A stretch of 64,000 nucleotides of DNA from Nitrosopumilus sp. GTDB taxonomy: Archaea > Thermoproteota > Nitrososphaeria > Nitrososphaerales > Nitrosopumilaceae. Made by a program: the position numbers and the translations under genes. The DNA lies in the NCBI GenBank assembly GCA_965223425.1, contig OZ245003.1, forward strand, positions 1,536,001 through 1,600,000, in the 5' to 3' direction. This document shows, in pieces, positions 36,987-62,803 of this stretch (its first letter is position 1; the number at the start of each line of letters is the position of its first letter). The notes under the pieces are model-generated. The model did not search any database and was not told the DNA's origin. It saw only the letters and a program-made list of their open reading frames with translations.

Positions 36987-37063
36987 AGTACTGTTAACAA
37001 TAGAGGATCTTTTGCCAGCTGACACGCTCAATAAGCATCTCGGATCCTCAAAAGTTAAGTGCC
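36987..37063. mobile_element. MITE family B copy 1 (IS6-like ends)
   Basis: AGTACTGTTAAC...GTTAAGTGCC; direct near-copy of 37657-37735. Confidence 0.7.
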
Positions 37064-37167
37064 CATAGGGTACTACAAATTTTGGTCTATTCAAGGCATT
37101 GTACATTTACAAAGGATTTGATCTGATTTGCCGACATGTTTTTAATTCTTGAAGAACAATCAAACTC

Positions 37168-37252
37168 GTCAGGGTCGCCAAGTTAGGTATGGCGTGTGTC
37201 TGAAAAACACATATCTCCTTCGGATGCATGGGTTCAAATCCCATCCCTGACG
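37168..37252 (+). tRNA. Atypical tRNA: GAA anticodon, long variable arm, G73 (Ser-like body)
   Basis: Acceptor GTCAGGG/CCCTGAC, D arm GCC/GGC, anticodon stem TGTGT/ACACA with loop CTGAAAA, variable TCC-TTC-GGA hairpin, T arm ATGGG-TTCAAAT-CCCAT; TATA-like TTTAATT about 27 nt upstream. Confidence 0.75.
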
Positions 37253-37292
37253 GGTTTATAGCATCTGTGTGGTATTGAGTCTTTAAAAAGTT

Positions 37293-37479
37293 TCATTGTT
37301 TGGTCTTTGCTAATTCCTTGAGTATGTCTCCATTACATGGTTTGGGACTGCACCAGCATCCCAAAACCCTGTTTTTTAGTTCAGGCAGATCTGCGATCAG
37401 TTCTGGTTGTGTCATGATCCATATGCGATACTGCAATAACCTGTTTGCGTGTGCCGTCTCTTCGGATGACAAATGGATT
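37293..37479 (-). pseudogene. DUF4326 pseudogene (copy of 62397-62654)
   Basis: NPFVIRRDGTR / WIMTQPELIADLPELKNRVLGCWCSPKPCNGDIL, with a 2-nt deletion frameshift and no N-terminus. Confidence 0.8.
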
Positions 37480-37656
37480 GCTGTCAATTCCAAAAGTTTG
37501 CAGTCGTAGACAGTACAATTCGTAGAAGTCTTTGTCATACATCATATTCACATATTTTTTATAGAAATAGACGGTCAATACGACAAAAAGTAATGTGGCC
37601 ATTCCCAAAATAATTATTGCAATTCCACTGTCGGTCATTTTCTTTCTCCCCTGATG

Positions 37657-37735
37657 GGTACTGTTAACAATAGAGGACTTTTGCCAGCTGACACGCTCAA
37701 TGTGGCGTCTCGGATCCTCAAAAGTTAACGGTGCC
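37657..37735. mobile_element. MITE family B copy 2 (IS6-like ends)
   Basis: Imperfect TIR GGTACTGTTAAC / GTTAACGGTGCC, resembling the GGCACTGT ends of IS6/IS26. Confidence 0.7.
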
Positions 37736-37831: not shown

Positions 37832-37906
37832 GCCAATGTAGCTCAGCCTGGTTAGAGCAGCTGATTTGTAATCAGCAGGTCGTGGGTTCGGATCCCGTCA
37901 TTGGCT
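37832..37906 (+). tRNA. tRNA-Thr(TGT)
   Basis: GCCAATG/CATTGGC acceptor, GCTGA-TTTGTAA-TCAGC anticodon arm, GGTTCG T loop. Confidence 0.93.
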
Positions 37907-37943
37907 TTTAAATTTCTTAAATCAAGTTATCATCATACAATTT

Positions 37944-38063
37944 CAGTTAAGCGAAATGTAAACAGAACATTCCTTTTGTTTTGTTATTAAACACAATTTG
38001 AGTCACATTCCAATTGTTCTATTCCTATTTTTTGTCCGATTTTTAGTACATTTCGCTTAACTG
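37944..38063. mobile_element. 120-bp MITE, family A
   Basis: Perfect 17-bp TIR CAGTTAAGCGAAATGTA / TACATTTCGCTTAACTG; 5-bp TSD AATTT on both sides. Confidence 0.9.
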
Positions 38064-38109
38064 AATTTGGCAATACGATTAAGTATGCAAGAATTTTGAA
38101 CAAATTCAA

Positions 38110-39060
38110 ATGAGTTCAGATGATTTTGAATCGAGTAAAAATAGTGATCAAAGCACTGAGCAAAATAGTGATCAAAGCACTGAGCAAAATAGTGATCAAA
38201 GCACTGAGCAAAATAGTGATCAAAGCACTGAGCAAAATAGTGATCAAAGCACTGAGCAAAATAGTGATCAAAGCACTGAGCAAAATAACAATAAAAAAAT
38301 ATCTGTGAAAAAATCAACATTTAATGGACTAGTCATAGGACTGATTGCAGCAGTTGGAATTACGGCGTTTCTGGCAGGATCATATGCATCAAATCTGAAC
38401 TCAGATCAGATTTCCCAAGAAGACTTGGAAAACGCTATTGCCAAACTAGAACTTAAAATATTGCAAAACCAGTTACCGACAGAGCAACCCAAACCAATAG
38501 TAAAAATTTCAATAGATGATGATCCCATTATTGGAAATCCAGATGCCGCAATCTCAATAATTGAATTTTCAGATTTCCAATGCCCATTTTGTGCACGATT
38601 CCATATTCAAACACTTCCATCGATTCTTGAAGAATACATAGACCAAGGCAAAGTAAAACTAGTTTTCAGGGACTTTCCAATTCAAAGTATTCATCCAAAC
38701 GCATTGCCTGCATCAGTAGCTGCAGAATGTGCAAATGAACAAAACAAATTCAAAGAAATGCACGACATGCTATTTGAGAATCAAAATGAATGGGATAAAC
38801 AAGAAACCGCAGATGCAATATCTTTGTTTAATCAGTACGCTTCTGAAATTCAACTAGATCAAGATGAATTTGTGTCCTGTCTTACTGATGAAAAACAGAT
38901 TGATGAGATCAGAAAAGATCTTGATGATGGAAGAGAGTATGGTGTGTCAGGAACACCGGGATTCTTTGTAGGAAATGACAAGATAGGATATGTCGAGATA
39001 AAAGGAGCCCAGCCATTTGAAAGCTTCAAAAAAATCATCGATGCTCAACTAGACGCATAA
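38110..39060 (+). CDS. Membrane-anchored DsbA-family oxidoreductase
   Basis: EFSDFQCPFC, GVSGTPGF, GAQPF; TM helix. Confidence 0.9.
   Translation: MSSDDFESSKNSDQSTEQNSDQSTEQNSDQSTEQNSDQSTEQNSDQSTEQNSDQSTEQNNNKKISVKKSTFNGLVIGLIAAVGITAFLAGSYASNLNSDQISQEDLENAIAKLELKILQNQLPTEQPKPIVKISIDDDPIIGNPDAAISIIEFSDFQCPFCARFHIQTLPSILEEYIDQGKVKLVFRDFPIQSIHPNALPASVAAECANEQNKFKEMHDMLFENQNEWDKQETADAISLFNQYASEIQLDQDEFVSCLTDEKQIDEIRKDLDDGREYGVSGTPGFFVGNDKIGYVEIKGAQPFESFKKIIDAQLDA
38140..38283 (+). repeat. 24-bp tandem repeat x6 encoding NSDQSTEQ
   Basis: Unit AATAGTGATCAAAGCACTGAGCAA, identical copies. Confidence 0.95.
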
Positions 39061-43077: not shown

Positions 43078-44760
43078 ATGACAAAGGAAGAACATCAATA
43101 CAGAGTAATATCAAAGATGGATTGCAAAAAAATATCTAAAAAACTCAGATCCACAATTTTAGAGTTAAATGTAGGTGATGAGATCAGCGTAAAATCCTTT
43201 TTTGAGAAACATAAACAGGCACTTGATTTTAAAAATGACAGGACTGCCAGAAACAGAATCGCAAATGCGTTTAAAATAGCACATGTGGAAAACACGATTG
43301 AGAGAATAAATGACCCGGCCGCTCCCGAATGGTTCAAAAAACTGGATACTGTCTCTTTCTGGCAATTACAGCTTCGCGGCAGCAAGTTCAAAAACTCAGA
43401 TGGCACAAAAACCTCCACTACAAAAACACAGTACCTGTTCCATTTGTGGCATTTCAACAAATGGATATTGGAAAAAACATTCACAATAAACACACTTCAG
43501 GCAGGCAGTGGGGGCCATTTTTTACAAAAGACAGAGGCAAGAAAATTCAGGAATGTCGAGGAGGTTCTGAGGATTCTGGAACAGCCGTTTTTCGATCAGA
43601 AAAATGTAATCCGGATCATAAAGCAGTATCTCTTGGATGCTTCTCTGCATTCGCATAAAAAGGCATCATACATGGCTATAACCAAAAACGCAATCGTGTC
43701 ATACTTTGAGAAAAACGAGTACCCACTGAAAATCATGTTCAATCCAAAGGTACCATACAATACGGAAAGTGAGGACCAGAACATGTCCCTTTCAGACCTT
43801 ATGGAGTTTTTAACTACCGGAAAGCCGTCAATATTGGAAAAAACCGTATTCCTATGCAAGTTTCAAAGGGGACTGGATGTATCAACACTTGTTGACAGGT
43901 TCAACTATGAGGCATGGGAACAGGTTGCAAAATGGTTCGGTTCAGAGAACCATGACTCGTGGGATTTGGAAAAGTGTCCGGTGCCCGTATCCCTTGTTCG
44001 GATAAAGACAGACTACAAGCACGTTGGATTTTTGGACAGGGATGCAATTGAGATGTTGCAGAAATATCTGGATTACAGAAAAACAAAAACAGAAACAGAT
44101 ATGCAAAAAGGGGAACCGTTATTTCTGAATAAATTTAACAGGGCGATATCTGCTGGATGGATGTTTAATAGTTTCTCACGCATTGCAAAAAGGGCCGGAA
44201 TCCAAAAATTTACGGAAATCAATGGCAGAAAACAGTACAAGATGGACTCGCACGAACTGCGGGACCTGCTAAAATCCACACTGATTGATTCCGGGTGCAG
44301 AATTGATGTGGCAGACCACGTCATTGGCCACAAGCCAAGGGACTCGTATGAGAAGCAGGCAATACTGTACCCCGAAACCCTGAGAAGGGAGTACTCCAAG
44401 GCCTCAAAGAGGCTCAACATATTTACAAAGTTCACAAGTGTCGTGTCAGGAAATGATGATGCAGACGAGCTGGGGGTGGAACTGCGGGAGAAACTGTCGG
44501 AACTGGAGAAGATAAGGGAAGGCAGGCTTGATGAGGAGGCGGCAAGGTATCGCAGCGAAATGGTTGCAGCAGAGCAGAAGAGGCAGATGGGGGGCCTCCT
44601 GGATACGGTAAACGAGCTCAAATCACAGATTGATTCCATGAAAAATGGCGGCCCCAAAAAACTAGAGTTTTGCTGCATTGACTGCAGTACCGTACATGGA
44701 AAACAAGAGTGTCCTTCCTGCGGTTCCATGATGAAGAGGATTTACGAGTCTTCTTCATGA
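43078..44760 (+). CDS. Tyrosine recombinase/integrase with C-terminal coiled coil and Zn ribbon
   Basis: RIKT (K), HELR (HxxR), IGH, SY (catalytic Tyr); CCIDC...CPSC tail. Confidence 0.85.
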   Translation: MTKEEHQYRVISKMDCKKISKKLRSTILELNVGDEISVKSFFEKHKQALDFKNDRTARNRIANAFKIAHVENTIERINDPAAPEWFKKLDTVSFWQLQLRGSKFKNSDGTKTSTTKTQYLFHLWHFNKWILEKTFTINTLQAGSGGHFLQKTEARKFRNVEEVLRILEQPFFDQKNVIRIIKQYLLDASLHSHKKASYMAITKNAIVSYFEKNEYPLKIMFNPKVPYNTESEDQNMSLSDLMEFLTTGKPSILEKTVFLCKFQRGLDVSTLVDRFNYEAWEQVAKWFGSENHDSWDLEKCPVPVSLVRIKTDYKHVGFLDRDAIEMLQKYLDYRKTKTETDMQKGEPLFLNKFNRAISAGWMFNSFSRIAKRAGIQKFTEINGRKQYKMDSHELRDLLKSTLIDSGCRIDVADHVIGHKPRDSYEKQAILYPETLRREYSKASKRLNIFTKFTSVVSGNDDADELGVELREKLSELEKIREGRLDEEAARYRSEMVAAEQKRQMGGLLDTVNELKSQIDSMKNGGPKKLEFCCIDCSTVHGKQECPSCGSMMKRIYESSS

Positions 44761-62396: not shown

Positions 62397-62654
62397 ATGA
62401 TTAGAATAGTCCACAACAAAAATGAGAAATACGATATTTTAATCGACAGGACGGGCAAGTGGGGAAATCCATTTGTCATCCCAAGAGACGGCACACGCAG
62501 GGAGGTTATTGCAAAGTATCGCGCGTGGATCATGACACAGCCACAGCTGATCGCAGATCTGCCCAGACTAAAAAACAAGGTTTTGGGATGCTGGTGCAGT
62601 CCCAAGCCATGTCACGGGGATGTACTGAAAGAATTGGCAGAGGCCGAGCAATGA
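62397..62654 (+). CDS. DUF4326 domain protein
   Basis: IDRTGKWGNPF...LGCWCSPKPCHGDVL. Confidence 0.9.
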   Translation: MIRIVHNKNEKYDILIDRTGKWGNPFVIPRDGTRREVIAKYRAWIMTQPQLIADLPRLKNKVLGCWCSPKPCHGDVLKELAEAEQ

Positions 62655-62694
62655 AACTTTTTAAAGATTCAAGACCGCACAGATACTATAAACC

Positions 62695-62774
62695 CGTCAT
62701 GGATGGGATTTGAAACCGTGGTACACGATCAGTGGTTTTCAGTCACCCGCCATACCTAACTTGGCGACCCTGAC
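62695..62774 (-). tRNA. Degenerate second copy of the GAA-anticodon tRNA-like gene
   Basis: Reverse complement GTCAGGGTCGCCAAGTTAGGTATGGCG-GGTGA-CTGAAAA-CCACT...TTCAAATCCCATCCATGACG; mismatches in the T and acceptor stems. Confidence 0.6.
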
Positions 62775-62803
62775 GAGTTTGATTGTTTTTTAAGAATTAA
62801 AAC

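Follow-up and report, generated by a model that had tools for sequence, protein, structure and literature searches.

The window analyzed here, a 64,000-nt stretch of Nitrosopumilus sp. (GenBank assembly GCA_965223425.1, contig OZ245003.1, positions 1,536,001 to 1,600,000 of the forward strand), contains a class II tRNA gene in which the phenylalanine anticodon GAA is set in a body that has a long variable arm (copy 1; Table 1). Read directly from the sequence, its cloverleaf is 85 nt long with every stem paired: an acceptor stem of 7 bp, U8-C9 between acceptor and D stem, a D stem GCC(A)/(U)GGC, an anticodon stem UGUGU/ACACA closing the loop C-U-GAA-A-A (anticodon at 37202-37204), a T stem of 5 bp (AUGGG/CCCAU) and the discriminator G73 at 37252, with CCA not encoded. 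ARAGORN called tRNA-Phe(GAA) at 37167-37253, 37168-37252 scored 58.1 bits against the Rfam tRNA model RF00005 (gathering score 29), every pair being standard, and R1, a covariance model built from six copies of the family, gave 100.5 bits. The cloverleaf, the CUGAAAA loop, the hairpin arm of ~16 nt, G73 and the upstream TATA-like box had all been proposed in a preliminary description made from the sequence alone, and each was confirmed by ARAGORN, Rfam or direct reading. Leader and trailer pair over 6 bp, discriminator included, and the predicted precursor fold has an energy of -39.9 kcal/mol (z = -4.6), equaled by 0 of 200 shuffles. The genome (2.64 Mb in two contigs, and by its archaeal AmoA that of an ammonia-oxidizing archaeon) also contains a canonical tRNA-Phe of 75 nt with G20, G37, A73 and anticodon GAA, and all four tRNA-Ser, among them a Ser(GGA) with an intron; the gene described here is therefore an extra.

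Table 1. Positions of the features discussed, numbered from the first nucleotide of the window
Feature	Position	Strand	Basis
Class II tRNA gene, anticodon GAA (copy 1)	37168..37252	+	ARAGORN, Rfam, family covariance model R1
Variable arm of copy 1, 16 nt: 5-bp hairpin including two G.U pairs, 5-nt loop, one unpaired 3' base	37212..37227	+	Folding and sequence
Alternative helix, 5' strand (tRNA positions 28-34: four anticodon-stem bases, C32, U33, G34)	37196..37202	+	Minimum-energy fold, covariation
Alternative helix, 3' strand (last 7 nt of variable region)	37221..37227	+	Minimum-energy fold, covariation
TATA-like box TTTTTAAT, -29 to -22 relative to G1	37139..37146	+	Sequence reading
Leader AAACUC, complementary to G73 plus trailer GGUUU (37252-37257)	37162..37167	+	Sequence reading
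Decayed second tRNA copy, loop CUGAAAA kept (copy 2)	62695..62774	-	Rfam, model R1, folding
Truncated DUF4326 frame, convergent with copy 1	37293..37538	-	Pfam E 1.3e-9, profile positions 34-82 of 82 only
Intact DUF4326 gene, convergent with copy 2	62397..62654	+	Pfam E 1.7e-26, profile positions 2-82 of 82
70-nt direct repeat, hairpin-forming, left flank of tRNA/DUF4326 module	36989..37058	+	Repeat comparison, folding
70-nt direct repeat, second copy, right flank of tRNA/DUF4326 module	37660..37728	+	Repeat comparison, folding
Tyrosine-recombinase (integrase) gene at the low-GC/high-GC boundary; start of the element holding copy 2	43078..44760	+	Pfam, PHROGs, GC profile

The variable arm was also considered as a bulge-helix-bulge intron, defined by two 3-nt bulges around a 4-bp helix and by a normal class I tRNA after removal. 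This was ruled out, as the arm is a plain hairpin of variable length that shows compensatory changes and no bulges; ARAGORN in intron mode likewise still called the gene intron-less. Elsewhere in the genome, the only tRNA-Val(CAC) (C1:931660-931755, minus strand) is 96 nt long and has an insert of ~18-19 nt in its variable region, probably a non-canonical intron.

Searches with R1 at a cut-off of 70 bits resulted in 29 matches in 18 of 151 genomes of the genus and, in an order-level sample of 151 genomes, two more, both in one genome of a sister genus. Next under R1 came the tRNA-Ser(GCU) of every genome, the nearest canonical tRNA, at about 60-66 bits; with 71.3 bits for one Ser(GCU) from outside the genus, the 70-bit cut-off is not a sharp boundary. 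In an alignment of 30 family members (A4) the cloverleaf was paired in 97.2% of 599 cells and 17 of its 20 pairs had changed on both sides, with 0 of 500 shuffles as good and slid controls at 37-48%, and compensatory changes were seen in all four stems, the acceptor included. G73 is present in 28 of the 30 members, and the anticodon loops are CUGAAAA (16), UUGAAAA (12) and CUGAUAA (2), corresponding to 28 GAA and 2 GAU anticodons. Additionally, an independent set picked by a 3'-end pattern that does not involve the anticodon comprised 8 metagenome loci and 18 genome loci, the latter labeled as Nitrosopumilus, Nitrosotalea, Nitrosarchaeum and unclassified Thaumarchaeota metagenome-assembled genomes. 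GAA was found in every one of the 14 independent loci outside A4 that were aligned (13 distinct sequences), bringing the full-length relatives to 44, of which 42 have GAA and 2 GAU. Serine and leucine anticodons are thus not the majority among homologues, and the disagreement between anticodon and body, which the preliminary description had reported for this gene, is real and conserved in its relatives. A recent GGA-to-GAA point mutation is ruled out by the conservation of GAA across the family. Taken together, cloverleaf, GAA and G73 are conserved through compensatory change; the gene is real and belongs to a conserved family.

The flanks are less uniform. Extra pairing between leader and trailer had been described as conserved in both copies; the 6 bp at copy 1 and the same flanks at copy 2 stand, but the feature is not universal, with at least five contiguous pairs in 20 of the 30 A4 members. 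At -38 to -18, an A/T run of at least 6 was seen in 26 of the 30 A4 members and 12 of the 14 independent sequences, which is weak evidence for a TATA-like box as the DNA is AT-rich. The target locus and relatives are present in contigs of four sequencing runs, which showed no transcript ends, and no RNA run was listed as containing the locus. An exact-pattern scan of viral contigs, which is no proof of absence, gave 0 matches to the 3'-end pattern.

Lower-scoring relatives include single cases of GGA, ACG, CAU and CAG, further GAU anticodons, and other class II bodies with GAA. The same genome contains a further, diverged class II GAA gene (C1:1117192-1117281) and two class II G73 tRNAs with GAU (Ile) that are 1.1 kb apart (C1:1696868-1696955 and 1698002-1698091) and have the acceptor GGUGAGU; a relative with the same acceptor (L072) carries GAA. 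One family member in another genome (G007, C1:554905-555014; L027/L047) has a 24-nt tandem duplication within its D arm and the loop UUGAAAA, and is misread by ARAGORN as Ser(UGA) with an intron.

Which amino acid the body calls for was judged from published identity rules and from isotype models. The archaeal Phe determinants listed in PMC9976931 are A73, G20, C13-G22 and G34-A36, the anticodon bases being the strongest; the same source gives G73, followed by the weaker G30-C40, as strong Ser identity for both the bacterial-type and the methanogen-type seryl-tRNA synthetase (SerRS), describes G73 as an antideterminant for the leucyl-tRNA synthetase (LeuRS) of H. volcanii, and states that a change of A73 to G73 can turn Leu identity into Ser. 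The target carries U20, A13-U22 and G73 and lacks the short variable loop, leaving the anticodon GAA as its one Phe feature, and in A4 the other Phe marks are scarce (A73 in 2 of 30, G20 in 1 and C13-G22 in 2). Long hairpin arm, G73 and G30:C40, the Ser features, are shared by the target and most of the family: G30:C40 occurs in 25 of the 30 members, variable regions are 14-21 nt long, and a hairpin of at least 3 bp is formed in 28. The Leu feature A73 is absent from the target, whose D loop is shorter than in host tRNA-Leu. A Ser model (R2, from 7 host and related tRNA-Ser) outscored a Leu model (R3, from 4 host tRNA-Leu) in 28 of 30 members, with 72.2 vs. 55.1 bits for the target, although both models are small. 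The host encodes one SerRS, of standard type and with its N-terminal tRNA-binding arm present. By these sequence criteria the family body leans to Ser and is clearly distinct from both Phe and Leu, yet it is no typical tRNA-Ser; the Ser-type body named in the preliminary description is supported as a leaning (G73, long arm, G30:C40, R2 above R3), with 72.2 bits on R2 for the target vs. 96.8 for an independent true tRNA-Ser.

In its minimum-energy fold the target has no anticodon stem; instead, positions 26-34 pair with the 3' half of the variable arm. The core of this alternative helix is 7 bp long and is complete in 22 of the 30 A4 members and 6/7 paired in another 7, whereas the corresponding positions in canonical tRNAs give 3-5 of 7 (Ser) and 5 of 7 (Leu). 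Of 269 cells in A4, 91.8% are paired in this helix; four of its pairs account for 32 double-changed cells, none of 500 shuffles was as good, and slid controls gave 24-49%. In the 14 independent sequences the helix is paired in 89.9% of 89 cells (slid controls 21-53%). Position 32, although unpaired in the cloverleaf, covaries within the alternative helix (C-G 17, U-A 8, U.G 4). Constrained folding of the 30 members placed the two folds within a few kcal/mol of each other (median difference -1.3), the alternative being at least as stable as the cloverleaf in 17. Since many of the pairs are G.U, the helix exists in RNA of this strand, and since covariation is seen in both folds, the RNA looks bistable, with an alternative fold that appears to be built into the family. 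Neither the variable-arm hairpin nor the anticodon stem-loop persists in this fold. The conserved alternative helix is a new feature, absent from canonical Ser and Leu tRNAs.

A second kind of mismatched tRNA is present in the same genome. Four class I tRNAs of 72-73 nt (C1:129092-129164, 769460-769531, 1454122-1454193 and 1629480-1629551) have the acceptor top of tRNA-Ala, with G3:U70, and the anticodons GAG, CAG, GAA and AAG, which belong to Leu or Phe; the discriminator is A73 in three of the four and G73 in the AAG copy at 1629480. Among the 151 genomes of the genus searched, 4 others contain relatives (5 of 151 with the genome itself; L146, L147, L149, L150 and L153), and at L153 the Ala-type tRNA is 0.9 kb from a class II GAA copy. 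ARAGORN read the nine Ala-type loci, those of the genome itself included, as five GAA, one CAG and one AAG, with two uncalled. Most have a mismatched 31:39 pair; positions 32, 33 and 38 vary, and C33 is found in two. SerRS and the alanyl-tRNA synthetase AlaRS are anticodon-blind. Thus two unrelated bodies, each bearing what the identity rules would mark as signs of an anticodon-blind synthetase, converge on hydrophobic anticodons with A35.

The relatives of the class II gene adjoin integrases, transposases and ParB/methylase genes, and transposase or integrase frames lie near 11 of the 18 family loci scanned (1.5 kb each side). Locus L035 repeats the gene order of the window (PAPS-reductase-like gene, tRNA(s), DUF4326, MT-A70) and holds four tandem tRNA copies within 1 kb, the last of them without the 5' acceptor strand; a further 5'-truncated copy was found at L003. 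In genome G009 (C1:553000-563000 and 590000-600000; L105/L106) two near-identical tRNA copies lie in inverted repeats of 1.6-1.9 kb, each repeat containing an intact class II GAA tRNA and the 5' part of the integrase gene; the tRNA adjoins an integrase. These repeats bound a 37-kb element with an archaeal integrase, PriX, transposases and, at one edge, HicA, and housekeeping genes lie outside. The inverted orientation in G009 differs from the outcome of simple site-specific integration.

Within the window, copies 1 and 2 form the core of an inverted repeat of ~340 bp (37140-37479 / 62466-62802, 85-92% identity) that also carries DUF4326, intact beside the decayed tRNA and truncated beside the intact one. 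Simple integration or inversion schemes give no explanation for the inverted orientation of the two copies. Copy 2 has the same flanks as copy 1 and was missed by ARAGORN; its variable region is shortened and 4 of its pairs are non-standard, it scores 32.3 bits against the Rfam tRNA model and 56.7 bits on R1, and its fold has z = -2.0. It is a decaying duplicate and no independent functional witness. Its retained CUGAAAA loop had been taken as an argument against a one-off mutation; the loop is indeed kept, but in a degraded duplicate inside an inverted repeat, so that it is weak evidence by itself. DUF4326 has been proposed to act as a phosphatase on ADP-ribose derivatives in virus-host conflict, and DUF4326 and NUDIX genes are assigned to NAD/ADP-ribose conflict systems (both PMC9503650); the best match of DUF4326 in a PDB sequence search was no better than E = 0.066.

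Copy 1 and the truncated DUF4326 frame make up a module of 0.6 kb bounded by the 70-nt direct repeats, whose neighbors on both sides are of housekeeping type (PvlArgDC, AhpC, tRNA-Thr(UGU), a DsbA-like gene and a DEAD helicase). The 70-nt repeat has no match in Rfam; a third copy lies at C1:2117191-2117266 of the same genome, and the repeat forms a long hairpin with compensatory differences between copies. The tRNA-Thr(UGU) at 37832-37906, the other tRNA called by ARAGORN in the window, is the only one in the genome. Just 3' of it, a sequence of ~120 nt (37943-38064) has 95-96% identical copies at C1:1356966 and 792900, and a tandem 24-nt repeat with a 12-nt sub-period (38114-38329) occupies the 5' end of the DsbA/thioredoxin-like gene (38110-39060).

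Copy 2, in turn, sits within a large integrated element. At about 44 kb of the window the GC content climbs from ~0.36 to 0.44-0.50, and the integrase gene at this boundary is followed by several ParB-like genes, an MT-A70 methylase, NUDIX, and nucleoside deoxyribosyltransferase-like and PAPS-reductase-like genes. The element extends tens of kb beyond the window, where C1:1600001-1640000 encodes a TFIIB homologue, two D5-like primase-helicases, a family B DNA polymerase, SNF2 and other helicases, methylases, DndB-E with a cysteine desulfurase, and ParB genes. Direct repeats of 85-89 nt occur in the element at 47775-47859/49249-49333 (86% identity) and 53479-53567/53844-53932 (72%). With integrases, transposases, inverted repeats and element genes around the copies, the association with mobile elements suggested in the preliminary description is supported.

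Taken together, these results point to a functional, selectively maintained class II tRNA, for which serylation followed by decoding of Phe codons as Ser, gated by the switch between the two folds, is the best-supported mechanism; we hold it as a tentative reading, only slightly short of an even chance. Traveling with integrated mobile elements of ammonia-oxidizing archaea, the tRNA would be serylated by the host SerRS, which would not read the anticodon and would recognize the long arm, G73 and G30:C40, while the phenylalanyl-tRNA synthetase (PheRS) and LeuRS would, under the published identity rules, reject it. Once charged with Ser, it would decode UUC/UUU and place Ser where Phe is encoded, making it mistranslating and potentially toxic, and its activity may be gated by the alternative fold, which would abolish the SerRS determinant together with the anticodon stem-loop. 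The element could profit from the tRNA as a weapon, an addiction device or a means of abortive infection; alternatively, the tRNA might rescue ribosomes when host tRNA-Phe is attacked. The convergence of Ser and Ala bodies on hydrophobic anticodons is predicted by such a design for missense insertion and not by a decoy, a helper tRNA or a recombination site, which are the alternatives weighed below.

Several observations weigh against serylation and Phe-to-Ser decoding. The 72.2 bits of the target on R2 are well under the 96.8 of an independent true tRNA-Ser and only about 9-20 bits above true tRNA-Leu (52-63); U2:A71 is present in 28 of the 30 members, compared with C2:G71 in all four host tRNA-Ser; and the sequence of the variable arm is unlike that of host tRNA-Ser. 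The two sets used to evaluate the alternative helix are made up of relatives, and it was in the fold of the target itself that the helix was first noticed. Furthermore, element frames use Phe at 4.39%, compared with 4.31% in host-side frames, and in the MT-A70 methylase (133 cells; 20 of 44 matches aligned) the 7 Phe columns hold F (77%), Y, L, M, A, W and I but never S. As the element genes use Phe normally, they would be self-poisoned unless the tRNA were tightly controlled. A reassignment of Phe codons to Ser within the element is ruled out by the same data, with Phe columns never Ser and Phe not avoided; any Ser insertion would therefore be mistranslation and not a new code.

A different use of the GAA loop, as an anticodon mimic outside translation, is unlikely but not far-fetched. 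The RNA would here be a decoy or sponge for a reader of the GAA loop, such as PheRS or a host anticodon nuclease acting on tRNA-Phe, or else a regulatory RNA with two folds, to which bistability would be well suited. GAA is the one feature common to the two unrelated bodies, and the variation at positions 32, 33 and 38 of the Ala-type tRNAs, with C33 twice, would make for poor decoding. Phage tRNAs with changed anticodon loops are reported to evade tRNA-targeting defenses (PMC10264068, PMC11555353), the target loop has A37 where the host tRNA-Phe has G37, the DUF4326 and NUDIX neighbors come from the conflict systems noted above, and bacterial allo-tRNA(UAU) species were judged possibly unused in translation (PMC5389517). 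The simplest decoy, however, would be a copy of tRNA-Phe, whereas the bodies keep G73 with a long arm or G3:U70 with A73, and all four stems, the acceptor included, are under compensatory selection. The preliminary description had suggested a PIN/VapC-type anticodon nuclease as the partner of such a decoy; among the 47 frames at 30-64 kb of the window scanned by Pfam there was neither a PIN/VapC domain nor any other recognized tRNA nuclease.

Charging with Phe is highly unlikely, in our estimation. A helper tRNA of this kind would be accepted by PheRS through GAA, the anticodon bases being its strongest determinants as described (PMC9976931), and would supplement UUC/UUU decoding for the GC-richer element, in which TTC makes up 35% of Phe codons (83/239) compared with 22% on the host side (95/437) and whose genes require Phe at their Phe codons. 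The host tRNA-Phe already has GAA, so that a helper would gain nothing in decoding range, and because GAA and GAU alternate on one body, two synthetases would have to accept it. The scarcity of A73, G20 and C13-G22 in A4 argues in the same direction, as do the Ala-type bodies with the same anticodon, which do not fit a helper, and we know of no tRNA-Phe with a long variable arm.

A recombination (att) site or relic, with tRNA-like DNA as integrase target or crossover, the 7-nt loop as overlap and a functionless RNA, is hardly credible: truncated copies and tandem arrays (L003, L035), the G009 tRNA adjoining an integrase with inverted copies bounding the 37-kb element, the 0.6-kb module between direct repeats and the frequent integration of thaumarchaeal elements in tRNA genes (PMC6563490) would all suit it, but all four stems are kept by compensatory changes, the G.U-rich alternative helix can exist only in RNA of this strand, the presence of the tRNA in only 18 of 151 genomes of the genus argues against a general chromosomal target, and at L035 and copy 2 the tRNA lies between conserved element genes (PAPS-reductase-like, DUF4326).

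Serylation with Phe-to-Ser decoding also has parallels in known systems. Bacterial allo-tRNAs are described as Ser-type or Sec-like, most with non-serine anticodons, some of them serylated and active in E. coli and some inactive or toxic, and as lying near toxin-antitoxin and transposable elements (PMC5389517). As presented by Mukai et al. (2017), they resemble the family in Ser-type body, non-Ser anticodons and mobile-element surroundings; they differ in being bacterial, in an 8/4 or 9/3 acceptor/T arrangement where the archaeal family has a standard 7/5 with both stems covarying, and in their anticodons, mainly UAU, GCG and GUC with Phe anticodons rare, whereas the family has almost only GAA, with some GAU, and the alternative helix. 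The nematode V-arm nev-tRNAs (Hamashima et al., 2015; PMC4300185) are likewise class II tRNAs with foreign anticodons (Gly CCC, Ile UAU) that raised the question of code ambiguity, but they are eukaryotic nuclear tRNAs reported as Leu-charged in vitro, and the G73 of the family argues against Leu.

The closest likeness in design is a laboratory one. Yeast tRNA-Ser with GAA or GAU is reported to be conditionally lethal, putting Ser at Phe or Ile codons, and in a set of 64 anticodon variants both ranked within the 11 most depleted (Zimmerman et al., 2018; PMC6125640). The engineered tRNAs combine Ser body, A37 and GAA or GAU exactly as the family does; the yeast constructs, by the same account, are kept harmless by tRNA decay, whereas the family is natural and mobile, with the alternative fold as a possible safety catch. 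Phage tRNAs that evade anticodon nucleases share with the family a mobile-element origin and loops unlike the host isoacceptor, but, as those studies describe them, they keep the cognate body and amino acid, while the family changes the predicted amino-acid identity. Canonical archaeal tRNA-Ser, finally, the isotype closest to the family under R1 and R2, shares with it the long hairpin arm, G73, G1:C72, U8-C9, G30:C40 and a Ser-like D-loop length, and differs from it in anticodon, in U2:A71 of the family, in arm sequence and in belonging to the core genome. No description of this archaeal tRNA family was found in the literature covered, which did not extend to the tRNAscan-SE 2.0 supplements.

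Few natural tRNAs combine a body and an anticodon that disagree, and the biology of those that do is unsettled. In this family a design that is lethal when engineered in yeast is conserved in at least three genera of ammonia-oxidizing archaea, going by record labels, and always in accessory, mobile DNA. It is a speculative and decidedly unlikely extension that the elements carry "tRNA toxins", Ser and Ala bodies aimed at Phe, Ile and Leu codons and held inactive by the switch, whose release upon superinfection, element loss or stress would corrupt the proteome and so bring about abortive infection, addiction or host takeover. For annotation, the consequence is that tRNA finders list family members as extra tRNA-Phe. 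An on/off fold encoded in a tRNA would be a rarity, and the covarying alternative helix would provide one; should these tRNAs be charged in the way predicted, controlled mistranslation would serve mobile elements as a tool.

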